A stretch of 60,421 nucleotides of DNA, the filler included, from Stramenopiles sp. TOSAG23-2 (lineage: Eukaryota): NCBI GenBank assembly GCA_900128395.1. It is 5 parts of 5 records of this genome, joined end to end, with 100 filler letters (N's around TTAATTAATTAA, not from the genome) between each part and the next. Parts side by side here need not be neighbours in the genome. Positions count along the whole stretch, not along the records: positions 36,418 to 48,377 come from LT649886.1; 4 more parts are not named here. One strand, written 5' to 3'. A program made the position numbers and the translations under genes. The notes under the pieces were generated by a model. It had not been told where the DNA came from and made no database searches. It saw nothing but the letters and a program-made list of their open reading frames with translations. Below are positions 1-51,492 of this stretch, piece after piece; position 1 is the stretch's first letter; each line of letters starts with the position of its first letter.

Positions 1-444
1 TTTGATAGGTTGAAATCGCCATTATTAAATTTTTCAACTTTTTTCATTTTTCGCGGCAAAGATTCAAACCAAATGTAGTTTAATGAATCGAGTACTACAT
101 TCCATCGACTAGTTTATATCGACAAATACATGAGATAACAATCTAACTAGTATAAATAATAATTAAAATACTCGATACATTTTGAAAAAACAAACAATTT
201 CAATCAAACTATATATATGACATAGATACATACATATATAATGTGCAAAGCGAGGATAGATCAATATAGATCAATAAAGAAAAAAACATATTTATCATAT
301 ATATTCAATTATTATACGTGTCTTTGTACGTGTGTTTGTGTGTGGTGAATTATTTGTAAGGATCCAAACTTTATTAATATTAAACAAATTATATTTAAAA
401 AAAAAATTAAATCATTTTCAAAAAAATAATTATTAAAAAAAATT

Positions 445-2187: not shown

Positions 2188-2612
2188 AGGAAGTACATTT
2201 TTAATGAGTTATATGTGACGACAAGAGGAGCTGCAGAAGGGCAGAGGATTTGAAGAGAGATGAGAGATTCTTTTTTTCGTGGTGTAGTTAGAACACATAA
2301 TAATATAAAAAGCATTTATATGTTGTGGTTAGTATTTTATTTTTTATTTTATTAAATATAAACAAATTTAACTCCAGAGTATTAGTGTTAATAATTAGAG
2401 CATTAAAAACTGAAGGTACTACATTAAAAAAGAATTAAAAAAACCTCACCAAACACCAAAACACCAAAATATACAACAAGAGACTCACTACTCACTACTA
2501 TCATCTCATCCATCTGACCATCTAATCATATCTCTCTAATCATTAATCTCTCTCTCCTCAGTCTCTCTCGCTCTCTCCTCTCTCCTCTCTCTCTCTTTCA
2601 CAAAAAAAAATC

Positions 2613-5600: not shown

Positions 5601-5965
5601 ATATTTTGATAAGTGATCTATATATCATATATTATTAATCTATTTATTGTATACTTACTGTTGCACAATAAAAACGTGAACCGGATACATCAGTCAATAC
5701 AAACCAAAAAAAGGTTGGTTTATTGATGGATATATTATTATTTTTCATACTGTTATTATTGTTATTTGACATATATGTTATATCAACATTATCAGGAAAA
5801 GCAAAAGATGCAACTTGATCTGGACGTATAGCATCTTTTGTTTTTTTTTTAATTTCTTTTTCAATTAAATGTGAATATTGTTTTTCAATCATTTGTTTTG
5901 TTGGAAATTGATCTAATACTTTTGGTTTGAATTGTATACCATTTGGTTGCGTTGAATTTTCAATT
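2613..5965 (-). CDS. DENN-domain Rab GEF-like protein with IQ motifs (mirror copy, 5'-truncated at the palindrome centre)
   Basis: Mirror of 6100..9452 with identical translation. Confidence 0.85.
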
Positions 5966-6099
5966 CTGTGTTGGTGTGTGTGTGTGTAAGGATATTGTTA
6001 GGTAATGGATTATTTTGTATCATTATATATATATATATATAATGATACAAAATAATCCATTACCTAACAATATCCTTACACACACACACACCAACACAG

Positions 6100-9000
6100 A
6101 ATTGAAAATTCAACGCAACCAAATGGTATACAATTCAAACCAAAAGTATTAGATCAATTTCCAACAAAACAAATGATTGAAAAACAATATTCACATTTAA
6201 TTGAAAAAGAAATTAAAAAAAAAACAAAAGATGCTATACGTCCAGATCAAGTTGCATCTTTTGCTTTTCCTGATAATGTTGATATAACATATATGTCAAA
6301 TAACAATAATAACAGTATGAAAAATAATAATATATCCATCAATAAACCAACCTTTTTTTGGTTTGTATTGACTGATGTATCCGGTTCACGTTTTTATTGT
6401 GCAACAGTAAGTATACAATAAATAGATTAATAATATATGATATATAGATCACTTATCAAAATATATTACAATTTTCACATTATTTTTTTATTAACAAATT
6501 ATATATAACATCCCCACGACAACACAGTTACATTTCTATGAACGTATTGATCCATTAGACGTTGCATGTTTATTTTTACATCATAACGATATTAAAAAAA
6601 CACCAAATTGGGCAGTCAATTCAAAACATACCGTCTATAGTAGAAAAGGTTTATGTGTTGTATCGAAATATCCATTTTTATGGCAATTACGACAATTTTT
6701 AAGACAATTATATCGTATAAGTATTTCCAATGCACCTGTACCAATTGAAAAATATATATCAAATTTTTGTGGTGAAGTTCCATTACCACCACGTGGTATT
6801 ATAGAAGTAAATATATCAATAGCAGATATATCCATCACATTGTCTCGACCACCATCAAATACATTACCACAAATTGGTAAACATTGTTTAGAAATATTAT
6901 TTGCAAGATTAAATGTTGATTCAGTGATTTTAATCTGGAGATTATTATTAATGGAAGTGAAAGTGATCATGGGGACTAAAACACGTTCCATTTTAACACC
7001 AACAATGGATGCATTATTAAATTTATTGTTTCCGTTTTATTGGGCTGGGGTATATATACCAGTATTACCACCAAGTTTAATGGATGTCATTGATGCACCG
7101 GTACCATATTTTGTTGGTATCTCGAATTATAAAACATTTCAATCAATATTACATAATCCTAGACGTCCATCGGATACATGTTTTGTTGATTTGGATACTG
7201 GTGATTTATATTATGATAATTTAAATGAAAAACCACAATTACCACAACATGATGGTGTGAAATTAATTAAACAATTATCAATATTAAATATTGATATAGC
7301 AAAAACAGAAGCATCCGATGCAGATAATGATAGTAGTAACAGCAATAAGAACAACAATAATGAACAACAAGAACGAAAAGCAACAACTACGTATCGTGGT
7401 AGTGTTAGTGAATCTATTGGTCGACCATGTTCCATATTATTACATCCAAATGATTTATTATTTCCTGATTGGGAACCATTAAAACCAATTGAAAATTTTG
7501 CATTGGAAGATGGCACAATTGAACATATGGATCATCATAGAAGTAGTATAGATCAAGATGGTAAAAACGTCGTACGCCGTAGCCGTGTCTTTAGTGATAA
7601 TTTAGGATTATCGACGTTACATGATACAAGAAGTAAACATAGTGGTAGTAAAACATTAAAAACAATTGGTGAAAATCGTGGATCAAATTTATCTGATACA
7701 ACAACAATTGAATTTCCTGATTTACAAGTACGATTAGCATTTTTACGTTTCATGACTGCATTTTTTCAAGATTATGAGAAATATATTATACATGAAACAA
7801 AGAAATTTAATGAAGAATTATTTGTGAAATCATTAGATAAAGTAGATCGTCCATTTGCATTAGTATTAATGCGAACACAACTATGGGATGGCTTTGTACG
7901 GGATCGTACCGACGGTGTAGGTAAAGATGGTGCATCTAGTCGTACAGATATAGGGTATTGTATACAATTTTTCAAAGAAAGTATATATAAAAAAATGAAT
8001 CGTAGTATTACATTACGAAAAAAATTTAAAACAAATTTTTTAGATTCCAATGAATTTAACCATCGTAATACATTCCATGCACCATTACCAATACCAGTAC
8101 TTCAACCAGATGGAACCATGTCACGATTTACATATACAAATGGATTTCCAAAATTATCAAATCAAAATTATGGTATAGTACGAAAACCACGTCGTATTGC
8201 TGATTATGAGACACAGCGACGTGCAAATGCTGCAGTGCAACAAATTTTAATGCATATGCATTTAACTACTGGATTTGCAATGGATAACGATGGTTATGAT
8301 GATGATAATGATGACAATGCAAGTGATGCAGGGGATGTAGAATCATTAGCGCCATTAGATCAATTAGTATTGCAAAATAATCGAAAGAAAAAACGACAAG
8401 AATCCATGGATGATATCAATGCAAATGAATTTAAAAAACGAGAGAAATGTATTATACATGCACAAGCATTATGGAGATGTAAAGTAGATTATCGTAATTA
8501 TCAAACAAAATTAGCAAGTATACGAACGATTCAAACCAATTGGGGTAGAATGAAGCAACGTACACCATTAATACGTAAACGTAATGCTTGTAAAAGAATA
8601 CAGAAATTATCACGTCATTTTTTATTTAAATTAAGACGATTAAATGCATCAACAAAAATTACTAGTTATCGTCGAATGTTATTAAAGAAACGTATGTATC
8701 AACAACGTCGACGAAATATTATTAAACGTCAAGCTATTTTTCGTGGATATTTAATACGTAAACAAGCGATTATATCACGTTATGAAAAAATTATAATATT
8801 ACGTAAAGAATTATTTGATTTATGGAAAATATTGGATAAACCTTTATTATATCGTGCAAAATTTTGGCTTTTATTTGGTAGTACTGATACAAAAAATATA
8901 CCATTTAAACAATTAGATATAAAACATAATCCAATTTATCATTATACGTTTTTAGAAATGGGTGTACATTTAGATGAAGTCGAACGTTTACGTATAGAAA

Positions 9001-9452
9001 AAAATCAACAACAACAACAACGAGGTGGTAGAAGAGGTGAAGAAGAGGAAGTGGAGGGAAATAATAACAATAACAACAATAATATGGAAGCAAAAACACG
9101 TATGCATAATCAAAATAAATTTAAACAATTTATTTTTAAACGTAAACCAGGTTATGAAAAACATGATCGTGATCATGTCTATGAACGTTTGAAATTAAAA
9201 GTACCAAAAGAAACACGCGAACGATATTTTAATATGTTTGGTTTAGATGGTGGAAAACGACGGAAACATCAATTAGCAGAACGTTTATTTATGAATTTAA
9301 ATGAATGTGATTTATCCAGCCAAGTCATGTTAAGTACAGTTGAACAAGATGATATTGGTGTTGATTGGGTATTAAATAAAAAATTACAACGTATTAATAA
9401 GAATATTTATGATACATTGAAAGGTACATTGAAAATGTTAGGTGGGCAGTGA
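6100..9452 (+). CDS. DENN-domain protein (uDENN-cDENN-dDENN) + IQ motifs + C-terminal DUF3490-like region; partial, join(<6100..6406,6528..9452)
   Basis: Acceptor CAG at 6097-6099 precedes FKPKVLDQFP (uDENN-like). Intron GTAAGT 6407..CAG 6527. Then GLCVVSKYPF, VPLPPRG, LLFPFYWAGVYIPVLP, DAPVPYFVG (cDENN), AFLRFM...TQLW (dDENN), and IQ-like IQTNWGRMKQR and RQAIFRGYLIRK. No start exon is present. Confidence 0.85.
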
Positions 9453-9877
9453 GATTTTTTTTTGTGAAAGAGAGAGAGAGGAGAGAGGAGAGAGCGAGAG
9501 AGACTGAGGAGAGAGAGATTAATGATTAGAGAGATATGATTAGATGGTCAGATGGATGAGATGATAGTAGTGAGTAGTGAGTCTCTTGTTGTATATTTTG
9601 GTGTTTTGGTGTTTGGTGAGGTTTTTTTAATTCTTTTTTAATGTAGTACCTTCAGTTTTTAATGCTCTAATTATTAACACTAATACTCTGGAGTTAAATT
9701 TGTTTATATTTAATAAAATAAAAAATAAAATACTAACCACAACATATAAATGCTTTTTATATTATTATGTGTTCTAACTACACCACGAAAAAAAGAATCT
9801 CTCATCTCTCTTCAAATCCTCTGCCCTTCTGCAGCTCCTCTTGTCGTCACATATAACTCATTAAAAATGTACTTCCT

Positions 9878-11620
9878 TTACCAATCCCCATTCACTGCAG
9901 CTTGTTTCTCTGCCGCTTCACGAAAATCTTTTTTAATATCTGCATATAATGGTGCTAAAAATGAATGTTCAAAATATTCCATATATGGTTTTAAACTAGT
10001 TTTATCCACATCAGAAATTTTCATACGTTTATTGCTACTATTACTTGTATCACCATCATCACCATTGATTGTATTCTTATGTAATGAAGAAGAAGATGAA
10101 TCTAATTCATCAGCTAATGATGCAACAGTTGGTGTTGTATGTGGATCCCATTCATCTACTTTAGTTGGATCAATTGGTACACAAACACGTCCTGTTTTTG
10201 GATGTACACACCATGGTGATTTCAATAAATGGTTTCTGTGCGTACTAACATTTACATCTAAACGTGGATAAACACTGTGCATGTTAAAATAAGAAAAATT
10301 TTGTTAGAACATATAAATGTACACAACGCAGTGATGGAACAGAAAAGTTCAACGATGACGACTCTAGATAGATAGATAAATAAATAGTACTTACTACATA
10401 AATATAATGCCATAATGCGCCGTTCTTAAATTACGTAAAGAATCACTAATTAAACGTCCTTTTCCTACTTTTTGTTGTTCTTTGTCACAATACAGTTGTA
10501 ATGTTTTTTTCAATTGTTCCCATCGTTGCCCTGCAGTTAAAGATTTATTTGAACGTTTTTCCCATTCTACTTTTAATGAGGATGCAATATCTTGTTGTGG
10601 TATATGGGATAAAATTTCATCGAAACCATTTGAATTACCACTTTCCAATAAACCTTGTCCAATTTTACCAGTACTTTCATCATTACCTTCACATACAAAT
10701 TTCACAAATTGTTCTTCCATGTATGGCAAGGAGCGTTCCAAGGATGGATGCAATGGGTATGTCAATGGTACACGGCTTGCACTACGTTCATTACCAGTCA
10801 CAACCGTTAAATAGTTGACAATTGCAGCACGGCTTTTATCATCTAATGTTCTTGCAGATTGATCGCATACCCAACAATGCACACCACGTCTACCACTAAA
10901 TATCCATAATAAATGTTTAAAATTGAAATCTTCACGTAATGCTTTATCGACTACTTTCACTGCCGTGGACATGAAATACCAACAATCTTTACCCATACCA
11001 CGTGATATATCTGCACCTTCTGCACCAACATCATCGTAATCGGTTAAATCGATATCAAATACCAATTCACGTTCTAATGGTTTGAATATATTAGAAGGTA
11101 TCATATCATGTTTGGATGGTTCATGGGAATAAACAGCACCAATATCAATTTTACGTGGTTGTTGTCGCATGATTTTTTTACGCATTTCCTCTGCATTTTT
11201 GAAATTTAAATAACGAATATAAACTTCTTCCCCACTTACATCCAATGTAAAGGATATCTCACGATGAAAAAAATATTCTGGTTGTCCCATTGTATCTTTC
11301 ATACCATATGTATTACCATATGATAACCAACGATACATTTCATTGTATGGAAATAGACTGTGATGTTTTTGTGTGTGTTTTTTTTTTGATTTGTGTTTGA
11401 TTATTTAATTTGTTAGTTTGATTGATTAATAATGGTTTTGTATGTATGGAATAGAATGAATAAATTGTAGAACTTACCGTGTATAATAAACATTTAATAA
11501 TTCTGCACTAAATTCTTGTGTACGTACTGTTTTAGGTACACTAGTTTCATCTGCCATATTCACATCTTCATCTTCGTTTTGTTGTTTTCCACCAGGTGAT
11601 GGTGCATTTACTAATTCCAT
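9878..11620 (-). CDS. PRIM1: DNA primase small subunit (mirror copy of 445..2187)
   Basis: Reverse-complement copy within the palindrome. Confidence 0.9.
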
Positions 11621-12064
11621 AATTTTTTTTAATAATTATTTTTTTGAAAATGATTTAATTTTTTTTTTAAATATAATTTGTTTAATATTAATAAAGTTTG
11701 GATCCTTACAAATAATTCACCACACACAAACACACGTACAAAGACACGTATAATAATTGAATATATATGATAAATATGTTTTTTTCTTTATTGATCTATA
11801 TTGATCTATCCTCGCTTTGCACATTATATATGTATGTATCTATGTCATATATATAGTTTGATTGAAATTGTTTGTTTTTTCAAAATGTATCGAGTATTTT
11901 AATTATTATTTATACTAGTTAGATTGTTATCTCATGTATTTGTCGATATAAACTAGTCGATGGAATGTAGTACTCGATTCATTAAACTACATTTGGTTTG
12001 AATCTTTGCCGCGAAAAATGAAAAAAGTTGAAAAATTTAATAATGGCGATTTCAACCTATCAAA

Positions 12065-36417: not shown

Positions 36418-36496
36418 TATTATTCTTGCGATTGAGTATTGAGCATATTACTTTAACACGAGAAGTGTAAAAATATTATAACTTAGATTTTAACCA
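36418..36496. repeat. ~80-bp dispersed repeat, copy A (opposite orientation to copies B-D)
   Basis: tattattcttgcgattgagtattgagcatattact...aacttagattttaacca is the reverse complement of 44148-44228 and 51143-51224. Confidence 0.9.
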
Positions 36497-36640
36497 ATAT
36501 TATCTAGATAGTCTTTAAAATATTTTATTTAATTAGCTTAATGCATAATTTATTTTAGTCTTTAAAATATATTATATTTTTAAAAATGCACACATTTTTT
36601 TTTACGAACACACACACAAATCTCCTTCCCAAATTTTAAA

Positions 36641-39019
36641 TCACACCCAAGATGCTTTAAAAAAATGTTCATCCGCCCAATATCTTCTACGTCGTTTATG
36701 TGGGATAAAAGTATGTGTTTTTTCTTGAGTGAAAAAATCTTTCCATTTTCGTGAATCTACACAACATCTACTGCATATACTACGTTTTTCATGATTAAAT
36801 GCTTTACAGAAATTACATTGCCATGAATGATCAGGAAATTTATAATCGTGTTTTTTATTGATGTATGCAGGTAATTTTTTACCAATTGATGGTGGATCAA
36901 TTGAAGGTGGTGGTGCAAAATTATCTAATAATCTAATTGTCTTCAAATTTTGAGCGTTTGCCATCGTATTTATCGCCATCAGCTCATCTGCCCCACGCTT
37001 TTTACGAGGCCGTCCAACAGGATTTTTCTTATTTGTAACTAGATTTCCACCTACAGGATTTTTACGAGGCCGTCCAACAGGATTTTTCTTCTTCTTTTCG
37101 CCATGTTTTCCCCCTTTTATTTCACCTTTGTCATTGTTATTATTATAAATACTTCCAGTATTACCATAAGAAGCATTATCCATACTAACTTTAGAAAGTT
37201 GAATCGAGTTTTCTAAATCATAAATTTCTTCAACAACTCCATCTTCATGATATACAACAGTATGAATATTATCACGCGGTCGAAAGTATCCAACACGTGC
37301 TTTACTCCATCTTTTTTCATATGGCAACCAAATCTCAACATCTTTTCCCGTCAATTTGGATGATCTTTTTTTATGTGTATGTTTTTTACAAAACGCAGCT
37401 AATTGAATTTTCTCTGAATTTTGACCACTTAAACGTTCTATACACATGTAAAATCCTTCTTTTTTTCCACAACTTGGATGGAATTTAAATTTACATGAAG
37501 GGATACTGCAATGAACAACTGCGCCATCTTTTTGACCACACACATCACAAAATTCTTCAAATAAATTGTTAGGTATTCTATCCAAAGATCCTTTTCTATG
37601 ATTATTTTTATCAATGGAACAAATAGGCTCCATTTTCTTATTATCTAAAAATCCAGCCTCGGGAATCCATAAAGCACAAAATGAATGTGCCCAGCGTCCA
37701 TCACTAGTCCGTCGCATTGCACCAAAATTTCCTCCATTGGGGCAAAAAATACACTTTGGGGGTTCCTGAAAGCCAGCATTGCATGTGTCACAATACCATT
37801 TATCAGGAGGTATTTTTGGAATATTATAACAGGATTGGTGAACACCAATATTACAACGATCACAAAAGATTATTTGATCAATAGCATTAGCATCGTCAAA
37901 ACATATTGTACATAAATCTGGTGAAAATTTTCCAAAATCTTCAATTGGTGCTTGTATTTTTTGTCGTGGCTTTGCACGTATAGGTTTAGGATCTTGTTTT
38001 TTCAATTTATAACTGCATGTTTTTTCATGTTCCGCTACCACATTGTATGTTCCAATAAAACCACAACGATAATCACATCCATATGTTTTTGGCTCATTAC
38101 GGCGGGGGGGCTCTTTATCATCATTTTGTCTAATTTCATCAGTTGTTGTTGATGTCAAATCCACAACAATATCATTGTTATCTAATAATGGTATTATATT
38201 ATTATTATTATCGACAGTGTTATCGTTATTATTTATATTATTATTAGTAGTAGTATGATTGTTGTTGTTGTTGTTGCTGTTATTCATTTGACAAGCATTA
38301 CAATGCCATATTAAAGGTGGATCAAGTTCAGATACAAAACCAACACAACAACCATGAAACCAATTTTGACACGTATCACATTGAACAGAGAAATGAAATC
38401 CATCCATAAATGGTGCGCCATTTCTTAAATAACACATATCTGTACACTGAACACCGTCATCTTCATAATAAATTTCATCTAAATTTATAAAATGGTCATT
38501 CGTATCATGTTGGTCGCGATTCACAACAGTTTCTTCACGTAAGAAATTCATACTTTCATCCAATACTCGATTGTTATTTAAATATTTTGTACAATTATCA
38601 TGACTATTAAATACTTGAAGCTTTGTGAAACGAGCTTTACATAGTGGACATGTATTTGTTACATCACTCCATGCTTTAATGCAAGAAATATGATATATAT
38701 GCTTACAATTATCCAACACGGCAAGTCCATCGTCATTTAATTTGTTTGTATCATCTTGCATATCATTAAGACATATTGGGCATGGTTCTTTTTCATCTAT
38801 TTCATATGGTGTTGGTTGTTTATTATTATTAATATCCTCACTATTATCAATAACCTTAGTGTTATTATTATCAATATCCTCAGTGTTATTATTATCAATA
38901 TCCTCAGTGTTATTATTATCAATATCCTTATTGTTATTATTATCAATATCCTCAGTGTTATTATTATCAATATCCTTAGTGTTATTATTATTCTGTTTTA
39001 TAACTCCTTGTTCCATCAT
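36641..39019 (-). CDS. Multi-zinc-finger chromatin protein: RING + PHD + PZP (PHD-Zn knuckle-ePHD) + Tudor-like + 2 AT-hooks + RanBP2-type finger
   Basis: Likely ATG at 39019. CPIC..CKHIYHISC..CPLC; QCDTCQNWFHGCC..WHCNAC; CTIC..FCDRCNIGVHQSCY..WYCDTC; CIFCP..GAMRRT..WAHSFCALWIPE; GRPRK x2; WQCNFCKAFN..CSRC. Confidence 0.88.
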   Translation of the reverse strand: MMEQGVIKQNNNNTKDIDNNNTEDIDNNNNKDIDNNNTEDIDNNNTEDIDNNNTKVIDNSEDINNNKQPTPYEIDEKEPCPICLNDMQDDTNKLNDDGLAVLDNCKHIYHISCIKAWSDVTNTCPLCKARFTKLQVFNSHDNCTKYLNNNRVLDESMNFLREETVVNRDQHDTNDHFINLDEIYYEDDGVQCTDMCYLRNGAPFMDGFHFSVQCDTCQNWFHGCCVGFVSELDPPLIWHCNACQMNNSNNNNNNHTTTNNNINNNDNTVDNNNNIIPLLDNNDIVVDLTSTTTDEIRQNDDKEPPRRNEPKTYGCDYRCGFIGTYNVVAEHEKTCSYKLKKQDPKPIRAKPRQKIQAPIEDFGKFSPDLCTICFDDANAIDQIIFCDRCNIGVHQSCYNIPKIPPDKWYCDTCNAGFQEPPKCIFCPNGGNFGAMRRTSDGRWAHSFCALWIPEAGFLDNKKMEPICSIDKNNHRKGSLDRIPNNLFEEFCDVCGQKDGAVVHCSIPSCKFKFHPSCGKKEGFYMCIERLSGQNSEKIQLAAFCKKHTHKKRSSKLTGKDVEIWLPYEKRWSKARVGYFRPRDNIHTVVYHEDGVVEEIYDLENSIQLSKVSMDNASYGNTGSIYNNNNDKGEIKGGKHGEKKKKNPVGRPRKNPVGGNLVTNKKNPVGRPRKKRGADELMAINTMANAQNLKTIRLLDNFAPPPSIDPPSIGKKLPAYINKKHDYKFPDHSWQCNFCKAFNHEKRSICSRCCVDSRKWKDFFTQEKTHTFIPHKRRRRYWADEHFFKASWV
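38842..38991. repeat. Coding 24-bp tandem repeat (DIDNNNTE-type) in the N-terminus of the RING/PHD gene
   Basis: Repeated ttatcaatatcctcagtgttatta units, about 6 copies. Confidence 0.85.
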
Positions 39020-40001
39020 CCTATTATTATAATTTATAATATATTTATCTTGTATATATATATATATACACTTTATTATGATTATGAAACGGCAGAAGAA
39101 AAAATCAACAAATAACAAGAGATGTAAAATAACAAGCACTCAAAAAAACAATTTCAAACAAGTAGTATTAAATGAAACATGTATGTTGAAACGGGAGAGT
39201 TGATCATTCATTCATCTACTAAAGTATTATATATATAATTTATTATGTATCTTTTTTTTTCGCAAATAATAATTAAAATCGCGCGCAGCACCGCAATCAT
39301 CCAGGGCACCAGGCCCAGCAGGCCCAGCAGGCCAGCAGGCAATCATCATCCCAGTAAATTCGGCACGGGTAATGGTATGTCCATCGTAACCCCAAAAAAA
39401 TATTCACAGTTTTGGGATTTTTTCACGCTAGGCTGACACAGCACCGTCTTAAGATTTTCATTTTGCGGGAAAAATTCCTCCACGAATTTTTATCGCCAAC
39501 CCTACCCTCCAACCACGCCCCTTAAACACCTCTCGAGACCCCAAATCATTTTCGGATAACGCCTGCTGTGTGGTGCTAATGACTTGCCGTCTAAGATTTT
39601 TGGGAACGTCAATTATATAAGGATGCTATTTCGATTGGGCGGGAATGGAACACGAAAATGAAAGCTTTGGGAATCGTTACTGCCTACTTCAATATAGAAA
39701 AAATACAAACGGCGAATGGAATTCACCATTAATAACAGCCTGTTAATGAGTAGAACCAGAAAAACGCATTTTTAGAGAGCGTTAAATGATATTTCTATAG
39801 TACAAAACAATCGCACGGGGATGGCGAATAAGTAAAAAATATACGGGGAATAAAATAAAACCAATACAAATGTATAAACAACGATTGATGTTATATTATT
39901 TACATACACAAACGCACAACAAATACAAAGACCGAACACAAACTGTATTATTAACCAAACCACCAAGCCAACGAACAAACACCTGTTTAACAAATAGAAA
40001 C

Positions 40002-43000
40002 ATGATTATCTTTTGCCCAAAGCACAACCATAAGCCTTTCCCACCACCGGAAGACACCACACATACAGACGAAGTCTGGATCGGATCACGATCCAGTCGT
40101 ATCTCTACTATTGTAGCAAACATCGATGGAACCATCTATTTATACTTTCATGAAGCACCGCAAGCATTGAACAAAGTGCTACGCGATGTGTACACATCCA
40201 AACTGTCTGCTCGTTTATCCGAACTGGAGAAGGACCAAGAAAAACATGCTATCAAACTGATTCGGGCGGCCAATGCTACGATCAAGGATCCGTTGATCCC
40301 AAGAAGTGTATCGGTATATGAATTGAAACGAGTGCAAGAAACCTTCGCCAAGTACGATGCCTTATACAAATCAAAACAAACAGTCACCTCCTATTCCAAA
40401 ACGCAGGTGAAGAACGCATTAAAGGCGTACGCAGAAGAGAAAACCAAGCAAGAGGTTGGTGCACAACATACCTTGGAGAAAACCAAAAAGCAATTGTTGG
40501 TAAAATTGAAACAATACAAGGGCTTATCGACTGCAAAAAACGATGATACCTTGTGGAAACGCGAAGGCATCTATCACATTGATGAACAAGAGCGTTGCAA
40601 CCTTCTTAAATCTGCGTTTGATTTACCGCAAGAAAACAAACCAAAAAAGCCTAAGCTAGAATCGTGGATGCGTAAAATGGTGAAACATTGCGCAGACTAT
40701 TACGAATCCCATTATTTGAAGGCCGCGGATAAAGCAGTTGTGCGAATCGCAGAAACATGCGCATCCATTGTTCGCGGTTCGAAAAAGTCAATCACCGCCG
40801 AAGGAATTCTACGCAGTGCTGGATACGACAGCAACGGGAACGTCAAACTAATTAAAAAATACGGTTTAACCAGAGCGGAGGGCTCTGGTACATTGAAAAA
40901 TAATGTAGCTGCGCTACGAAAATGTTTCTACATCATTAATATGGCTGCTTTGAAGCAAAGCCTGTCCATCAAAAGCCATCCCATCCGTGTATTAGACGGA
41001 ATCCATCAAAGTCTCAAAGGACTGTCGGTAGTCGGCAACGGAAAAGAAGAAATCGATTTGGGTATATCCAACAAGGACAAAAAAGAATTTGCTCAGCAGA
41101 TGGTCCGTTGGGTGAAAGACCAACATGTTATCAACGATTTTGAAACCTTGCAACAAGCATTACTAGCACGTGGCATCACCTTTGACCAAGAAAAAGAACG
41201 CAAAACACAGCGAACCAACAATGTCGACAAAATAAAAAGAGACATGTTGACGCTAACATTCTGGTATCCATTGTACCCACTGGCAAAGATGCGAAACCGT
41301 ATCGCTGGTAAAAACATTGGTTCAAGCATCGATGCCTTGATACAAACCTTGGTAACCAACACCAACAGTGAGATGTATACCAAGTTTTATTGTTGCACCA
41401 TCGCACAGGCCAAAATTGTTGCTGACACAAAAAAAGAAAGCAAAAGCAACAAAAATCCAATGGTGTATGGCCTTCCAGATGTCTCGAAATTGGAGCTCTT
41501 GTTTGCATTTACCTCGCATGTACAAACACATGCACCCGCGATGGCATTTGCACGACTCGCCGTCACCTTATGGCAATCCTACATGTTCAAAGAAACCAGC
41601 GTACGGGCTGCTACATGTATGGTGATACGTCTTCAATCGTTGGCCGATTACAACCAGTGGGCAAATCTATGTAAACATTATACAGAGCCCAACCTAGGCA
41701 TTGATTGCATTGTGTATGGCAACGACAAAGTGCAAGTGAAAAAGCTGGAATCAAAAGATATCTTGCAACGTATGCCGCCGGTCAGTCAAGTGTACGGAGA
41801 TGCCAACAAAGATTTTATCAAAACCTACTTTCGCAAAGAACACCCGGTCTTCTTTCAATTCTTTGACATGGCCAAAAAAGCTTATGAGATATTGACTGGC
41901 AACGATACCATCACAGCAACTTCCACGGAGCGCAGAGAATACATCTCTGGTTACCAACAAGGCGGTGGGTACAAACAAATCAAATTGAATGTCTTTCCAC
42001 ACACGGATACGCCCACCTATGCACAAGCTTCGCCATGGTACATGTACGCAGCATCCGAAGTGGGTCAGCATTCAACCTTTGAGCTATCCCCCATCGAGCG
42101 AGGCAATCTCTTCAAGAAGGTGCCAGTCAAAGGTGGAAACAAGACAAAACAACGGTTCAAGTCCATGTTAACCCGCACGGAAAAAGTGGTTAGCGGGTCG
42201 GTGAAAACCACCAAACTGGCTTACTGTACGGCCCCGCCAGTAGCGATGCAAACATTGACCACACGTCATGTCAACGATTCTAGCTTTGGTTCTCACCTGC
42301 AAAAGAAACATGCAACTGTATTGCGTCAAAGCATGAGTGGGTCCAGCGTAACCATGACTCGCAGCGAATGGTGCATTGACAACGATGTAGAGATTACTTT
42401 TGATGTTCAATCCTTGATTGGAACACCAAGAGTATTTGGTGGGACATGGACCCAGGCACATTTGGATTCCTTGCGAATCACCACGGCGTACCAATCGCAC
42501 CCAGAAAGTTTGGGTCGCTACATGTCTGGTCAAGATGCATTGGCCTGTGAAAAATTTGACGCCGAATTCAATATTTTATCGCATGAAAAAACCCTTGCAT
42601 ACAACACAATGCGCGTCGCCAACCAAGAAAAAAGCAATGGCCATACCAAGCATATCATGGAAAAACATTATGATATTTACACCGACGACGAGTTGAAAAA
42701 ATGCTCTCGTTTTGGCAACGACAAAGCCACCATCATTGATAGAGGGTCAGCGTTACCTTATTGGGTTCCCTCCAGGAGCATAGAGGGGTTGGAATTGGTA
42801 TACACGGGTGAACGCACTTCCATGCCCGCGATTACTCCAATTGAAGAGAAATGGGGACACGTGAACACATTGACCCTTCAACAAGAGTGTGCCATCAAAA
42901 CCATGATAAAGCGATTTGTGTGTGAGATTGTGGCTCGTAAAGACCACGGAATCAAAAACTGGCGTGCGGATTTAAAAGACGGTCATGGTGTCCATACTGC

Positions 43001-43208
43001 CTTGGCCAACCATTTCAATGACGTGGAGCATATTCAAGAGAAAATGCTACAAGAATGGATTCGCAAACACCCAAAAGAGTTTCAACAACGATTTGGAATT
43101 GCGGAACGTATTGTGCATTGGTGGCGTACATGTTGCTGCTTCCACCGAAAACGAAAACGAACAAGCAGCAAGTTTACACCGTACAAAAAACAAAAACAAC
43201 CCGAGTAA
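40002..43208 (+). CDS. Large orphan protein with a putative divergent tyrosine recombinase catalytic domain
   Basis: Likely ATG at 40002 (MIIFCPKH). ETSVR (R codon 41604), HLDSLR (R codon 42474), NGHTKHIMEKHY (H 42642, Y 42669; H-to-Y spacing of 9). C-terminal basic NLS-like RKRKR. Confidence 0.55.
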   Translation: MIIFCPKHNHKPFPPPEDTTHTDEVWIGSRSSRISTIVANIDGTIYLYFHEAPQALNKVLRDVYTSKLSARLSELEKDQEKHAIKLIRAANATIKDPLIPRSVSVYELKRVQETFAKYDALYKSKQTVTSYSKTQVKNALKAYAEEKTKQEVGAQHTLEKTKKQLLVKLKQYKGLSTAKNDDTLWKREGIYHIDEQERCNLLKSAFDLPQENKPKKPKLESWMRKMVKHCADYYESHYLKAADKAVVRIAETCASIVRGSKKSITAEGILRSAGYDSNGNVKLIKKYGLTRAEGSGTLKNNVAALRKCFYIINMAALKQSLSIKSHPIRVLDGIHQSLKGLSVVGNGKEEIDLGISNKDKKEFAQQMVRWVKDQHVINDFETLQQALLARGITFDQEKERKTQRTNNVDKIKRDMLTLTFWYPLYPLAKMRNRIAGKNIGSSIDALIQTLVTNTNSEMYTKFYCCTIAQAKIVADTKKESKSNKNPMVYGLPDVSKLELLFAFTSHVQTHAPAMAFARLAVTLWQSYMFKETSVRAATCMVIRLQSLADYNQWANLCKHYTEPNLGIDCIVYGNDKVQVKKLESKDILQRMPPVSQVYGDANKDFIKTYFRKEHPVFFQFFDMAKKAYEILTGNDTITATSTERREYISGYQQGGGYKQIKLNVFPHTDTPTYAQASPWYMYAASEVGQHSTFELSPIERGNLFKKVPVKGGNKTKQRFKSMLTRTEKVVSGSVKTTKLAYCTAPPVAMQTLTTRHVNDSSFGSHLQKKHATVLRQSMSGSSVTMTRSEWCIDNDVEITFDVQSLIGTPRVFGGTWTQAHLDSLRITTAYQSHPESLGRYMSGQDALACEKFDAEFNILSHEKTLAYNTMRVANQEKSNGHTKHIMEKHYDIYTDDELKKCSRFGNDKATIIDRGSALPYWVPSRSIEGLELVYTGERTSMPAITPIEEKWGHVNTLTLQQECAIKTMIKRFVCEIVARKDHGIKNWRADLKDGHGVHTALANHFNDVEHIQEKMLQEWIRKHPKEFQQRFGIAERIVHWWRTCCCFHRKRKRTSSKFTPYKKQKQPE

Positions 43209-43369
43209 AAAAGCTTCCTATAAATGTATACCGGTATTACGTAATGAATGTATTACATGCTATTGTACACGGGCAGTATATTCCTACTGCTCCTATTTAT
43301 TTCCATCTGACATGCCGCCTACCATTTAACAACACTATCATCCTTATCAAAAACCTACAATTTAAAGGG

Positions 43370-43555
43370 ATGCAATCACGATTATTGTTTCAACAACTTG
43401 AAACCGATTCCCACGTGATTGTTGAACACAACCTTAATAAAGTATACCTAGCCACTTCCAATTTTACAAAAAGCGCGACATTTATCCTACTGGACGCAAA
43501 ACGACTCACTCCAGAAGAGTTACCAACGCTAGCGTATCCCCCCTTACGGACATAA
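43370..43555 (+). CDS. Small hypothetical ORF in the element (MQSRLLFQQLE...)
   Basis: ATG-initiated 61-aa 3' part of ORF 43055..43555; element-like composition. Confidence 0.3.
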   Translation: MQSRLLFQQLETDSHVIVEHNLNKVYLATSNFTKSATFILLDAKRLTPEELPTLAYPPLRT

Positions 43556-43585
43556 GCGCTTTCTTCTTGGCGAGCAGAACTGTAC

Positions 43586-43825
43586 CTATAACATTCTGCT
43601 CACAAAAAACAAAACAGGTTCACTATAGAGTTGTAAAACGAAGTGAACCGCTGATCGAAAGGTAGGGTCGGCAATATCAAACCGTATCCAATGATGATAA
43701 CATCTTTCTTGGTTAATATATATTGCCCTCGTTTCGTTCACTTGTGGGGACAACGCATTATATGCAAAATGTTCCTTGGCACGGTTCACGCTTGTATTTG
43801 TGTAACATGGTTGTTGTTGGTCCAA
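43586..43825 (-). CDS. Small hypothetical ORF, possibly 5'-truncated by the adjacent AT-rich cassette
   Basis: 79-aa ORF with a TTG start that abuts the (TTTA)n tract. Confidence 0.3.
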   Translation of the reverse strand: MDQQQPCYTNTSVNRAKEHFAYNALSPQVNETRAIYINQERCYHHWIRFDIADPTFRSAVHFVLQLYSEPVLFFVSRML

Positions 43826-43905
43826 TGTATGTATTTATTTTTAATTTTATTTATTTATTTATTTTATTTATTTATTTTTATATTTCAAGATTCAAGTTTT
43901 GGTTA

Positions 43906-44088
43906 TTAGAGTGTTTGCGCGTCTAATGGTGGATGCCTGCTAGAAATCCTAAATTATTTTTAGAAAATATTAGCAGGGCGATACCACAAGACGCGCAAAG
44001 GGTCTAAGACAATTTGGATTGCTAAAGTGTCTTAGAGCATTTGCTCGTCTATTAGCAGGTGATTACCACAAGACGAGCAAAGTGTCTA
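43906..44088. repeat. Hairpin repeat cluster: full unit 43906-44007 plus an internally deleted unit 44032-44088
   Basis: Stems tttgcgcgtct/agacgcgcaaa, tggt/acca, cctgcta/tagcagg, ctaaa/tttag; second unit tttgctcgtct/agacgagcaaa. Confidence 0.85.
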
Positions 44089-44147
44089 TGTTTGGCAATC
44101 AAAAATGTATTCGAGTATATGGAAAGCATTTTAAGATAAAAATAAAT

Positions 44148-44228
44148 GATGGTTAAAATCTAAGTTATAATAATTTTACTTCCCGTGCTAAGTAATATGC
44201 TCAATACTCAATCGCAAGAATAATATTC
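44148..44228. mobile_element. 81-bp SINE-like dispersed repeat, copy B, with a 16-bp target-site duplication
   Basis: Flanked by identical taagataaaaataaat at 44132-44147 and 44229-44244. Confidence 0.75.
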
Positions 44229-44661
44229 TAAGATAAAAATAAATAAAATATTTATTGAAGTGCATCATTAATAAAATTGCTGATCCAAATCAGCGACATG
44301 GTGGTGGACAACCGGTGACAAACATGACATTGGAAATTTTACATGAGGATTAAAGTGAATTTTAAAATAGCAGTGTGATAGATATAAATATTTCCTTGAA
44401 ACAAATTATTAAAAAGATGTTAGTGATTTTTTATAAAATAACAGCTGTCCGGACCCACCATATCATAATATAAAAGTTCTTTTACTCATATATTTTATAA
44501 TTTTATTCATATGATATAAATGATGTATATGATATATTTTATTCATATGATATATATAACATATTACATACGCATAAAACATAAGCAAAAGATTTGATAT
44601 TTGAATTATTAGTACTCGTAAATTATATAATAATAATACGATATATGAATGAAATTTTCGA

Positions 44662-45900
44662 TTATTGCGCAGTTAATGCAACCATTGTTGATAGAACCAA
44701 AATGGCAATATTCGAAGACGAAGTTAATATGCCACTGCTTGTGTCTAATTCATCATCTGTGGTAGTATTACCAGTTGCACTAGTAGTTGCTGCCAAAGTT
44801 GTCGTTGCTGCCAAAGTTGTCGTTACTGCCGAAGTTGTCGTTGGACTTGCTGTTGTTGTTGGGGCTACATAGCATATTCCTTTTCCATCCGTACAGCAAT
44901 TTGACTCCAAAACTGACATCACTTGTTTTTGACCTGTAGTTAGACCTGCACAAGTTATACTAGTCCAATTGACGCTTGTTAAATCAGGATTAGTGCTAAC
45001 TTGTACATCGCAGGCAGCAGCGCCATTCGGAGATGTAAATATTGCCGCACCATTGTAATTACTTGGATTAAGACATGTCTTGGAATAATCAAAGCACAGA
45101 TCTCTTCCATCCGTACAGCAATTTGACTTAAAATAAGTTGAAATCGCGTTTTTTTCAGCTATAGTTAGACCTGCACAAGTTATACTGTTCCAACTGACAT
45201 TCGCTAATTGAGGCGAATTACTAGCGTGTACATCACAGGAAGCAGTGCCACCCGGAGATGTAAATATTGCTGAACCGTTGTAACTACTTGGATTAATACA
45301 CATCTTGGAATAATCTACCCCATGGCACAAATCTTTTCCATCCATGCAACAACCTGCACCAATATTTCTGTTTGAAAGGTCTTGCTTTTGCGAATAACTA
45401 AGGTCTGCGCAGGTTAATGTTGCAAAATTTAGTCCAGAAAACATATGTGGAATCGCGCCCAGGCAAGCCACATTATTCGACGAACCCACAAGAATACTAG
45501 AACCATTAAATTGAGATGGATCTTTACAAATTCGAGAAGCATTTTCGTAGCAGATACTTTTCCCATTGCAGCAGCCAGTTTGAAATGGTTCTTCAAGCAA
45601 TTTAAATCTTTGGTCTTGTGTAAAACTATTGGAAGAACATGAGGTAACGCCTGTCCAATTTTTATAACTTGGTGATGTAGTATTTTCATAATCACTAAAC
45701 ACTTTCACAACACCATCAATACTTACTCCAGATAAATATTGGTCACACGTAACAGTATTTCCATATATATTTATGGTTGCAGACCCTGAATAATCACTTG
45801 GATTTAAGCAACTTTTTGATCTGTCTTGAGCAACGGAAGTTGACATTGTTAAAGTGATAACAACCAGTGCTAATATTGTTGTAGTTCGTAAAAAATACAT
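44662..45900 (-). CDS. Cys-rich repeat cell-surface protein (signal peptide, four ~74-aa repeats, Thr-rich stalk, GPI-like C-terminus)
   Basis: N-terminal TTTILALVVITLTMSTSVA; repeats C.NPS.Y.G.A...CD...TC..L...QK...CC.DG..(I/L)C; 222-bp nucleotide period (ttccatccgtacagcaatttgact at 44883 and 45105); hydrophobic tail IAILVLSTMVALTAQ. Confidence 0.85.
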   Translation of the reverse strand: MYFLRTTTILALVVITLTMSTSVAQDRSKSCLNPSDYSGSATINIYGNTVTCDQYLSGVSIDGVVKVFSDYENTTSPSYKNWTGVTSCSSNSFTQDQRFKLLEEPFQTGCCNGKSICYENASRICKDPSQFNGSSILVGSSNNVACLGAIPHMFSGLNFATLTCADLSYSQKQDLSNRNIGAGCCMDGKDLCHGVDYSKMCINPSSYNGSAIFTSPGGTASCDVHASNSPQLANVSWNSITCAGLTIAEKNAISTYFKSNCCTDGRDLCFDYSKTCLNPSNYNGAAIFTSPNGAAACDVQVSTNPDLTSVNWTSITCAGLTTGQKQVMSVLESNCCTDGKGICYVAPTTTASPTTTSAVTTTLAATTTLAATTSATGNTTTDDELDTSSGILTSSSNIAILVLSTMVALTAQ

Positions 45901-46175
45901 GTTTTATAAATAGGTTAACAATTCGAAAAGGAAAAAATATATAGAATATTTGTTTTTGTTTTTTGTTGTGATATTAGAATGCAATTGGTAAAACCGGAAT
46001 GGTTTAATACTTAATTATTTTTATTTGGCACTTTACATTTGATGATAAAAGGTAAAATCCGCTCAAAAATGGATGGACATTCAACGGGATTTTGAGATTA
46101 GTGGTATACCAATGCTATTTTTAGGAGGGTGCCAGAGAATAATAATTAACAGATAGGATCATTTTATTGGATGTG

Positions 46176-46262
46176 TTAGAGTGGTTGCTCGTCTAATGAT
46201 AGATGCCTACTAGAAATCCTAATTTTTTTTTAGAAAATGTTAGCAGGGTGATACCACAAGAC
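46176..46262. repeat. Direct-repeat partner of 43906-43992 (87 bp, 9 mismatches)
   Basis: Ungapped hand alignment at offset 2270. Confidence 0.9.
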
Positions 46263-46314
46263 ACAAAAATATATATTTTTTTACAGATAAAGTTACAGTA
46301 GGATTATGGTGCAA

Positions 46315-46830
46315 TTATTCACTCTCTCTCTCTCTTTCTCTTGCTGCAAATGTTTCTCGATGGGCCCTTGCTTGCAATCCAGATTTTTTTTCTGACCACG
46401 ATGATTGACCCGCGCATGTAACATTGTCTGCATCACGCAGCTGTGCCAATTCCAATTGCCTGTTACGGATGCCAATTTCATGTACTAAATAGGACATACC
46501 AAAGCCGTTGTATGTACGCAATATATCATTCAGAAATTGTAATTCGCGTTCTATCACATCCTGCTTCTTGCGCGCTTCACGTATTTTTGTATAATGGTAA
46601 TACTGATGAAATATTTCAAACGCATTTACCCGATAATCTGATGCCAGCAGTGCTTCTTTATCGCTAACCAATTTTGTTGTAAGCGTTAGAAACCGTTCAA
46701 ACGGCATGTCGGTCTTCAATACCAGAGCCATTACCTCATACAGGTTGAGTGTCTTGGATGTTAGCAGTTGTATCACACGTTGTTGTTTAAAGATATCTTT
46801 TTCCCCGAGAAATTGAATCTTAGACGACAT
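46315..46830 (-). CDS. Hypothetical protein (element ORF)
   Basis: 171-aa ATG-initiated ORF; TATAAAAG 18 nt upstream. Confidence 0.6.
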   Translation of the reverse strand: MSSKIQFLGEKDIFKQQRVIQLLTSKTLNLYEVMALVLKTDMPFERFLTLTTKLVSDKEALLASDYRVNAFEIFHQYYHYTKIREARKKQDVIERELQFLNDILRTYNGFGMSYLVHEIGIRNRQLELAQLRDADNVTCAGQSSWSEKKSGLQARAHRETFAARERERESE

Positions 46831-46882
46831 TTGATAAACATAACATTTCTTTTATAGGGTCAAACGGTTGTAAAAGTTTTTA

Positions 46883-47790
46883 TCACATGCGTATGGTAGG
46901 AATTTTTGGCTCAATGAAGTCTATTAACCGCTTGAATAGCTGCTTTAGCGCGAGAAAATTCTTCACCGCGTCCCGGATTTCCTTCTGGGTAACATGGAAC
47001 CCCTTTTGTACCCTACCTAATTTGACAAACAGAAATTCAAGGCCTTCAAGTTTCAAGACTGGATTAATACCTTTTAGAATAGCCTCACGGTAGAGGCGTT
47101 CTATCCACTGCTTGGTGTTTTCTTTGGAGAAACCCCGGGATTTCAGCATAAACGATGGAAGAAACATGTCTTGCTCGGCTTCTTTATCTTCTTCGTTTTC
47201 ATCGTCCGTTGTGACTTCGCGATATTCTTTCGGCTGTGCAAGCACTTCCAGCGGCTGCTGGGTATCCAACGTTATTTGCCGCCGCTCATGCCATTGCTGT
47301 TCAAGCTGTTTGTAATCCGGACCAATGGCATAACCTCGGTGAAGCTCTAGATTCCCTGGGGTATTCTCCTTGGGAATTAAAGTTGGTTTTAATCTGCGTT
47401 TTTCATTTGGCTGGGCAGAGGGCACCCGTAAATGCTGCGGTGTCTCGTTCAACCTAGCGCCCTCTTCCACCTCCTGAACCTGTCTCACAAATGCCGGGGT
47501 GTTCTTCACGTCTCGTTTCTTATACTGCCGCGGGGTGGGAGAAGGGTCCGNNNNNNNNNNNNNNNNNNNNNNNNNNNNNNNNNNNNNNNNNNNNNNNNNN
47601 NNNNNNNNNNNNNNNNGTTGGGAGAAGGGTCCGACGGTGACATCGCCATAAACTGTTGGGTTAAACTGGACGCTTGATTTTTGGCGATGGATACATCCGA
47701 AAGCTCATTGGTGAGCGTTGCCAATTCGTCTTGGCACGTCTCCAACAAGATAGCTAATTTTCTCAAACGTTTATGAATTGTATCTTCCAT
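46883..47790 (-). CDS. Hypothetical protein (element ORF) spanning the N gap at 47551-47616
   Basis: MEDTIHKR...SDPSPN[gap]DPSPTPRQYKKRDVKNTP joins ORFs 47506..47790 and 46883..47509; gggagaagggtccg occurs on both sides of the gap. Confidence 0.6.
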
Positions 47791-47919
47791 GGTTTATCCA
47801 TTTTCACTAAGCTTATATAGTGCCTAGCGCCCAGAGCGACTTTTCGATTGACTTGAAGTATCAACATTGCTGGCATAAAATCGCCGGAGCACCTATTTAA
47901 ATAACAAGATGACCTACCA

Positions 47920-48270
47920 ATGAAATCAAAACACAAGAAACTCAAACAGAAACGAGCGGAACTGGCTATCTTAATTACCCGCAAGGCGTTTAAAACATAC
48001 AACGCCTATGTAACCGCCTCCTGCATTGTACAAAATCTTCAACCCATGCTGGTTGCCAACCGCGAGAAGTTTATCGCTGCCTTCACCAAGAGGGTATCTG
48101 CGCCGTTATACCACCTCACCGACGATGCGGAACAATCCAAACGCCATGTGATATCTTTTCTGAGGCGGTTGGCTCACTACTATGGGAATTTCTTAGCATC
48201 CAAGCGAAAATCTATCGTTGTCAATGGCAAGACTATCTCTCAATATTCCTACGCGCTGGTGAAAGTGTGA
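47920..48270 (+). CDS. Small basic hypothetical protein (element ORF), possibly DNA-binding
   Basis: 116 aa, Lys/Arg-rich; TATTTAAA 18 nt upstream; divergent from the 47790 ORF. Confidence 0.6.
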   Translation: MKSKHKKLKQKRAELAILITRKAFKTYNAYVTASCIVQNLQPMLVANREKFIAAFTKRVSAPLYHLTDDAEQSKRHVISFLRRLAHYYGNFLASKRKSIVVNGKTISQYSYALVKV

Positions 48271-48377
48271 AGTGTTCACTTGCGGAAAAACGGAAAAAAA
48301 TGCAAGGTTTCACATGCTGGAGATTCTGGCGATTTCACAAGTGCCAACTGCCGGCAGGTGGCAGATGACTTTTGCCC

Positions 48378-50964: not shown

Positions 50965-51142
50965 TTCACAAAAAAGGAGATGGAGTATTTAATACCACGT
51001 ACGAATGATGTATCGGTTAGATAGATATGTGTGTGTGTGTGTGTGTGTATGTGCATGTGTAAATTAAGCTGCCAGCTGGATATTTTATAATAATATGATA
51101 TATCGATATGCATATGTATTTTTTTATTTAATTTAATAATAT

Positions 51143-51224
51143 ATGGTTAAAATCTAAAGTTATAATAATTTTACACTTCTCGTGGTAAAGTAATATGCTC
51201 AATACTCAATCGCAAGAATAATAT
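51143..51224. repeat. ~80-bp dispersed repeat, copy C
   Basis: atggttaaaatctaaagttataataatttt...gtaatatgctcaatactcaatcgcaagaataatat. Confidence 0.9.
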
Positions 51225-51492
51225 GCTATCCTACTATAATAAAGCTCTCCTGACGTCGTCGCAAGCTCTCATGCGCCACCGCAAGCTAATACTCCATAAG
51301 CACAAGTAGGTTTAATTTAATATATATACGAAGTAATATATAAATGTGTGCATATCATAATATTTTACGACTATAAAATACATGAATAATAAAAATCATT
51401 TTATTAATATATCAATATCGCATATATATATATACAAGCTTGTATCATATGTGAAAAATATTCGTACATCATGTTCGAAGCATAATATAAAA

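Follow-up and report, generated by a model that had tools for sequence, protein, structure and literature searches.

Locus and reading frame

The DNA analysed is a window of 60,421 nucleotides (nt) from Stramenopiles sp. TOSAG23-2 (assembly GCA_900128395.1), in which contigs of that genome are strung together with spacers of N. One of them, C1808 (LT649886.1; window positions 36418-48377), carries the gene for the recombinase-like protein P0001, which is the first gene of an integrated, multi-copy element, richer in guanine plus cytosine (GC) than its host and with a sharp left end. The genome, as searched for relatives, comprises 32.8 Mb in 9146 contigs; the genes of the window are eukaryotic and AT-rich, and the labelled public runs containing the stretch are marine. 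GC makes up 43% of the surrounding stretch versus ~27-36% of host DNA, and the GC content at third codon positions (GC3) of the recombinase gene exceeds the 0.16-0.26 found across six host genes of the window.

The left terminus, the gene and its candidate catalytic positions are listed below in window coordinates. Conservation refers to a 25-row family alignment (distant rows 19-30% identical) and is counted over the rows covering each column; several rows are near-identical to one another, so that the counts overstate independence. aa, amino acids; TopIB, type IB topoisomerase.

39345..39556, + strand: left terminus of the element, starting (A)TCATCC; start shared with four other contigs; depth step
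40002..43208, + strand: recombinase gene (P0001), predicted tyrosine recombinase/TopIB fold; 1068 aa, intronless, GC3 0.48
41604..41606, + strand: R535, putative first catalytic Arg; R in 14 of 17 rows, gaps in 3
41754..41756, + strand: K585, candidate catalytic Lys; K in 15 and R in 2 of 17 rows; model residue 88, after strand 80-85
41928..41936, + strand: E643-x-R645, family-specific pair within a long insertion; 18 of 20 rows, gaps in 2
42474..42476, + strand: R825, a basic position only; K in 9, R in 9 and Q in 1 of 19 rows
42516..42518, + strand: R839 (LGRY), invariant (20 of 20 rows) and proposed as the second catalytic Arg; before model helix 332-347
42642..42671, + strand: H881 to Y890, each 18 of 18; model H371 and Y381 flank helix 374-380

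Translation confirmed the open frame of 1068 aa at 40002-43208 (+). An upstream start is possible because the frame is already open from the ATG at 39870 (1112 aa) and because a relative, P0002, has by eye a similar N-terminal extension (KYKDR is common to both); P0001 may thus be 44 aa longer at its N-terminus. The gene is under purifying selection, with ratios of nonsynonymous to synonymous substitution (dN/dS) of 0.12 against the copy on C3712 (proportion of synonymous differences, pS, 0.25), 0.17 against L071 and 0.07 against L072. Contigs of one oligo-dT RNA run extend across 39816-42450 and none across 39010-39635, which is suggestive of transcription of the gene. Basic C-terminal tails recur in relatives (KRKR at residues 1050-1053 of P0001); the nuclear localisation signal proposed there earlier is conjectural.

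Catalytic residues and family

The conserved order of the tyrosine recombinase (YR)/TopIB superfamily, Arg, Lys, Arg, His/Trp, Tyr, is found in P0001 as R535, K585, R839, H881 and Y890, which by their conservation appear to be its catalytic set. The first-pass annotation had placed box I at ETSVRAATCMVIRL (residues 531-544, with R535), box II at HLDSLRITTA (820-829; H820, D822, R825) and the His and Tyr in NGHTKHIMEKHY (879-890; H881, Y890), with spacings of 290 (R535-R825), 56 (R825-H881) and 9 residues (H881-Y890). Positions and spacings were all recovered, and R535, the first Arg, is kept in homologues together with H881 and Y890. HLDSLR as box II did not stand: R825 is not kept, H820 is H in 3 of 18 rows, and R825 was rejected as the catalytic Arg on the grounds that relatives have K, R or Q there and that the invariant R839 lies 14 residues on. 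K576, K580 and K581 were set aside as catalytic Lys in favour of K585 by alignment conservation. With R839 as the second Arg, two oddities of the earlier assignment, the 56 aa between second Arg and His and the Asp in HxLR, would vanish, and a TopIB-like spacing of 42 + 9 residues would take their place.

Between the Lys and the second Arg lie ~250 residues, largely beta in the model and bearing the conserved E-x-R. The distance from second Arg to Tyr is 49-52 residues in 16 of 16 sequences checked (51 in P0001); it is 51 in vaccinia TopIB (R223/Y274) and 32 in Cre (R292/Y324), according to PMC2943603. In the same source, Glu176 and His289 are described as unique to recombinases and absent from TopIB. 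An R-K-R-H-Y pentad with no equivalents of His289 or Glu176, and with a long distance from second Arg to Tyr, is the pattern of TopIB, and the active site of P0001 looks TopIB-like in these respects.

The description of P0001 as an orphan was not borne out: P0002 is 42% identical over the full length, and ~20 contigs of the same genome carry relatives. Five matches were returned there with P0001 and 22 with its paralogue P0019, several of them in open frames of 955-1135 aa. Beyond this genome, a phmmer search of 1.84 billion representatives gave 16 matches (15 short fragments and one full-length distant relative), and alignment searches brought in 3 and 13 further proteins. The P0001/P0002 clade aligns with the other paralogues in profile-profile comparison at 99.6% probability (expectation value, E, 6.8e-24) over 661 columns, all candidate residues included.

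Known families were looked for in several ways. P0001 and its paralogues have no real Pfam, PHROG or NCBIfam match; neither P0001 nor any of the 25 alignment rows matches a profile of the Phage_integrase clan at E <= 1; and none of the Topoisom_I, DUF3435, DUF3504, GCR1_C and telomere-resolvase profiles matched. PDB sequence searches from three alignments gave only E > 0.2, ESM Atlas gave no usable match to whole P0001 or to residues 495-930, and neither P0024 patterns nor two end motifs were matched in IMG/VR. No description of the recombinase family was found in the literature searched (chiefly open literature).

Fold

The model of full-length P0001 was poor (predicted local distance difference test, pLDDT, 55; predicted template modelling score, pTM, 0.34), and the fold was read from residues 400-800 of the paralogue P0024 (pLDDT 83.3, pTM 0.83). 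Among the 50 matches listed by exhaustive structural alignment of this domain, 13 align over >100 residues (Z 4.9-6.0), and these are 9 tyrosine recombinases and 4 TopIB enzymes, 13 of 13. The recombinases are Cre (Z 6.0; root-mean-square deviation, rmsd, 6.2; 179 aa), XerA, XerH, XerD, IntI and Tn1549 Int among others; the TopIB enzymes include that of variola (Z 5.7, rmsd 6.8, 178 aa) and 6z01 (Z 5.4, 187 aa). The remaining 37 listed matches align over <=71 residues, almost all onto the C-terminal helices, and a second comparison agrees. Because the Z values are middling, the fold evidence lies in the unanimity of the long matches. No telomere resolvase was among the listed rows of the two structural comparisons, in which members of the superfamily were not separated.

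In the P0024 model two long helices follow the second Arg; the turn after them holds the His, and the helix beyond that turn ends with the Tyr. The order of the residues and the arrangement of the helices match those of Cre, in which the L-M turn holds the His/Trp (W315) and helix M ends with the Tyr (Y324; PMC2943603). The earlier suggestion of a highly divergent enzyme of this fold is upheld by the catalytic domain of the paralogue and by residue conservation, the model of P0001 itself having matched nothing. These comparisons support P0001 as a very divergent member of the tyrosine recombinase/TopIB superfamily, with its fold as predicted for a paralogue.

Left end and copies of the element

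A search with 39200-39900 gave nine matches in the genome: four are on other contigs, where similarity starts at 39344-39346 and the flanks are unrelated, and the rest are this locus, C3712, a pair of partial matches on C5419 and a single match to a flank motif. Summed contig depth in three DNA runs from three studies is 0.6-3.0 in the flank bin and 57-79 in the first terminal bin (border 39323), and mostly 8-33 over the recombinase gene (one bin 0 in one run); summed depth is no copy number, and the runs were picked for containing the stretch. A second ATCATCC lies 49 nt upstream of the terminus, and the left end could be ~50 nt further left. The island of P0020, a 19%-identical paralogue, starts at ATCATCC as well, 11 nt past the end of homology to a paralogous host locus; its right end is not definable.

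C654 is an internally deleted derivative, in which the first 730 nt, including the 5' end of the recombinase gene, are joined to the tail of a 116-aa gene (48197-48239); this junction places the two genes in a single element, 9 kb long or longer. On C3712 (L006), flank and first 790 nt are identical to the window, followed by a copy diverging by 25% at synonymous sites: either the allele is recombinant, or the assembly has switched from one copy to another. C6098 was considered as a right-hand terminal inverted repeat (TIR); its terminus overlaps the 3' end of a 668-aa open reading frame (ORF), and C6098 and C656 differ inside the end. That ORF (L064:3-2009) is GC-rich, has a Herpes_ori_bp row below cut-off (E 9e-4) and enters the left-terminus copy with its 3' end.

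The flank returned only the same filled locus from the genome, hence no empty site; no loose end at the left junction was among those listed in public runs, and no exact 9-12-nt word is common to the left end and 48231-48377.

Companion genes, cargo and repeats

The features downstream of the recombinase gene are as follows.

43244..43555, + strand: 103-aa companion gene directly after the recombinase gene; homologues likewise in L071, L072 and C1394/C1632; no Pfam match
43906..44010, no strand: palindromic repeat, 105 nt, left of the cargo; partial copy at 44050-44088
44140..44230, no strand: very high-copy host repeat within the cargo; at least 56 matches from 40 of 653 candidates scored; DNA-run depth 1282-13797
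44662..45900, - strand: cargo gene, 412-aa Cys-rich repeat protein; hydrophobic N-terminus, host-like GC3 0.25; other genes in L071
46176..46262, no strand: second copy of the palindromic repeat, right of the cargo; 90% identical over 87 nt
46315..46830, - strand: 171-aa element gene; one RNA contig covers 46447-47413
46883..47509, - strand: 208-aa element gene; GC3 0.51
47920..48270, + strand: 116-aa basic gene; family recurring near recombinase relatives; no PDB match
48278..48377, no strand: imperfect inverted repeat, first arm and loop; contig stops inside; 90% identity with C1394/C1632, which also show the second arm

The cargo differs between copies: the relative L071, 91% identical, carries SET and 2OG-Fe(II) genes and C1394 carries PHD and SWIM genes; a gene for a leucine-rich repeat (LRR)-kinase-caspase protein on C1535 is a candidate cargo only. 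A cobra-toxin Pfam row for the 412-aa cargo protein of the window was dismissed as noise (E 0.088, below cut-off). The frame from ATG 47790 up to the N gap may be the start of the 208-aa gene. The basic genes of 110-123 aa, found in the window, on C1394 (twice), C1535, C780 and C1534, probably encode a DNA-binding accessory protein. A DUF5906 primase-helicase gene is present on C1535 and C1394, both with recombinase relatives, and none is seen on C1808; by eye, the N-terminus of the helicase looks TVpol-like. The element ORFs that were scanned gave no other transposase, integrase or capsid match. The right end of the element is not reached because the contig ends inside the inverted repeat; contigs of two public runs change strand between 48310 and 48377.

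Further repeats and genes were seen at this and related loci. As DNA, the 105-nt unit folds into a single long hairpin (-26.2 kcal/mol; z -7.1 versus mononucleotide shuffles), and the copy at 46170 folds poorly; the unit also occurs, single or in tandem, on C8588, C3750, C782, C625 and C9131, and could be a dispersed element in its own right or serve as a cassette site. The high-copy short repeat of 44140-44230 is present too at 36418-36500 and 51141-51228. Convergent on a recombinase relative is an element gene of 805 aa (L036:2095-4512), whose product has PHD fingers and a C-terminus that looks HNH-like by eye. Tandem and inverted repeat arrays on the far side of two other family members (L040:799-1171, L041:428-793) are possible end structures. 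Genes of one membrane-protein family (L065:7237-9210, L066:512-2563, L074:1266-1893, L091:1-1196, L044:4943-6964) adjoin C656 and C5566 among the four other left-end copies, C8588 and C782 among the five palindrome contigs, and the deleted relative C2404; these genes could be a favoured cargo or simply belong to an expanded family in unstable regions.

Interpretation and alternatives

With moderate confidence, we regard P0001 as an active, phosphotyrosine-forming enzyme of the YR/TopIB fold that acts as integrase, or 'captain', for a Starship-like element of at least 9 kb, which is integrated, present in multiple copies and laden with cargo. The first-pass annotation had left the choice between an integrase and a protelomerase-like enzyme; the former is preferred because the gene heads an integrated multi-copy element.

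From these data we infer the following catalytic roles, end binding, circular intermediate and target core. R535, K585, R839 and H881 would activate the phosphate and Y890 would form a 3'-phosphotyrosine; binding of the element ends would fall to the N-terminal part, ~500 aa long, and to the beta-rich insertion of ~200 aa that separates K585 from R839. Protomers would recombine both ends over a short core, probably (A)TCATCC, and the excised circle would re-integrate at a matching short target, in the manner modelled for Cryptons and Starships, with short-core recombination through a circular intermediate (PMC3212892, PMC13465315).

Several results weigh against this interpretation. The Glu/Asp at three residues after the first Arg is T538 here, with no E or D in 17 covering rows, and the His of HxxR is S836, with H in only 4 of 20. 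Two fold searches with the full-length model matched nothing useful; for the P0024 model the matches have a Z of only 5-6 and an rmsd of 5-7 Å, and Foldseek gave nothing at E <= 0.001 in PDB or BFVD. ATCATCC stands at the boundary in one of six upstream regions examined and in none of the five others, with a chance of ~3% per region by rough estimate. Right end, terminal direct repeat, empty site and circle junction were not found, and no complete copy is defined. Several element ORFs are without assigned function and could hide the real transposase, and the TopIB-like distance from Arg to Tyr may leave room for plain topoisomerase activity.

The strongest alternative, although we think it unlikely, is a type IB topoisomerase or junction resolvase encoded by the element and aiding its replication or resolution, the element being mobilised by something else. 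The TopIB-like pentad without equivalents of Glu176 and His289, the Arg-to-Tyr distance of 49-52 in all 16 sequences checked, the tie of TopIB and recombinase rows in the structural comparisons and the two relatives that share contigs with a DUF5906 primase-helicase gene would all suit such an enzyme. It is opposed by the scanned ORFs, among which no other integrase was seen, by the relative that stands alone in a GC-rich island of ~3.5-4 kb, by the place of the gene as first after the terminus, by the want of a Topoisom_I profile match and by Cre, in which His289 is not strictly required (PMC2943603).

Somewhat less probable still is a protelomerase-like telomere resolvase, turning a palindromic site into hairpin ends in an element that would also exist as a linear, hairpin-capped replicon. 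The length of the protein with its large insertion, the inverted repeat with palindromic core at 48278-48377 and beyond, common to another family member, and the replication genes beside two relatives are in line with it. The strand switch of the public contigs joins 48310 to 48377, however, as expected for an inverted repeat with spacer and not for a one-point fold-back, every copy seen has host DNA flanks, and no telomere-resolvase profile matched. The 12-kb palindrome that occupies window 1-12064 was discounted as a sign of hairpin ends, being another contig with host genes only; this whole contig is a perfect palindrome with 6032-nt arms and host genes (primase-like and DENN-like by eye), probably an amplification or assembly fold-back.

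We give equally little credence to P0001 as the integrase of an endogenous Polinton-like virus (PLV) or other DNA virus whose capsid genes lie past the contig end or are too divergent. The genes are intronless and GC-richer, and C1535 and C1394, which carry relatives, encode a DUF5906 helicase whose N-terminus looks polymerase-like by eye. A tyrosine recombinase close to one end of the genome and a fusion of TVpol with S3H are known from some PLVs (PMC4642659). Among the scanned ORFs of the (incomplete) recombinase-bearing contigs, however, no credible match to a major or minor capsid protein or an A32 ATPase was obtained (one weak head-protein match, E 0.01), IMG/VR gave no match, host-type cargo is present, and C1829, the sole contig on which A32 and helicase occur together, lacks a relative of the recombinase. 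The AT-rich cluster on C1829 (L042/L043; primase-helicase and Pox_A32 ATPase, E 9.5e-7) is likely an endogenous PLV in its own right.

A domesticated or catalytically dead DNA-binding gene serving the host, as purifying selection, RNA contigs and the absence of a canonical HxxR might suggest, is very improbable in view of the conservation of all five pentad positions, the foreign codon use (GC3 0.48 versus 0.16-0.26 in six host genes), a flank far rarer than the gene in three runs, and the existence of deleted derivatives.

Comparison with known systems

The integrase of a mobile element, as P0001 is interpreted here, invites comparison with Starships (Pezizomycotina, DUF3435 captain; PMC13465315), with which the element shares a large YR-fold gene leading, variable cargo behind it and a presumed short direct-repeat core. 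It differs in the lack of a DUF3435 match, a non-fungal host, the TopIB-like active site and the small genes conserved beside the recombinase, to which some relatives add a primase-helicase. Starships are bounded on either side by short direct repeats and asymmetric TIRs; here the left end only is seen.

Cryptons, including CryptonS of oomycetes and a diatom (PMC3212892), likewise have a YR as sole recognisable mobilising enzyme, no long terminal repeats seen, and non-autonomous deletion derivatives. Here, in contrast, there is no DUF3504/GCR1_C match and no R-H-R-Y tetrad with the His of HxxR, the protein has ~1000-1100 aa, and the element is multi-gene (at least six genes) with cargo, whereas Cryptons are one- or two-gene elements. 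Crypton ends have terminal direct repeats of 4-6 bp and no TIR, most CryptonS having TATGG (PMC3212892); here the left core ATCATCC only is seen.

TopIB enzymes (variola 2h7f, Leishmania 2b9s, human 1k4s, 6z01) resemble the family in fold (Z 5.1-5.8, 153-187 aa aligned), in R, K, R, H and Y without Glu176/His289 equivalents and in the 51 aa from second Arg to Tyr, as in vaccinia; the family differs in having no profile match, ~250 aa between Lys and second Arg and a diverse multi-copy membership at element ends. With Cre, Xer, IntI and Tn1549 Int the fold (Cre Z 6.0, rmsd 6.2, 179 aa) and the placement of His/Trp and Tyr are shared; the lack of a Phage_integrase match, the Arg-to-Tyr distance of 51 versus 32 and the missing Glu176/His289 equivalents set it apart. 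PLVs with OLV11-like or other recombinases and TVpol-S3H (PMC4642659) are alike in the recombinase near the element end and in the S3H primase-helicase beside two relatives; they differ from the present element, which has host-type cargo and, on the recombinase-bearing contigs, no capsid or ATPase found.

By the features tested, P0001 would work like a Starship captain and falls outside Starships, Cryptons and recombinases proper. New here are the corrected active site, the TopIB-like character and the multi-gene cargo architecture.

Significance

A broader proposal is tentative and, taken whole, rather doubtful: that these are eukaryotic elements moved by a TopIB-type site turned site-specific integrase, an independent analogue of Starships in a marine protist; primase-helicase modules would be an optional part (self-replicating, capsid-less), and the passengers would be host surface-protein, chromatin and LRR-kinase genes. 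A role as cassette sites for the 105-nt hairpins on either side of the cargo, like that of attC in integrons, is hardly to be expected.

Cargo-carrying recombinase elements of the Starship kind are described as confined to filamentous fungi (PMC13465315). The family reported here is entirely missed by current profile libraries. A TopIB-like site in a recombinase-like job would make it a direct test case for the distinction between topoisomerases and recombinases, and a separate lineage in a widespread marine protist would offer a route of gene movement in uncultured plankton.

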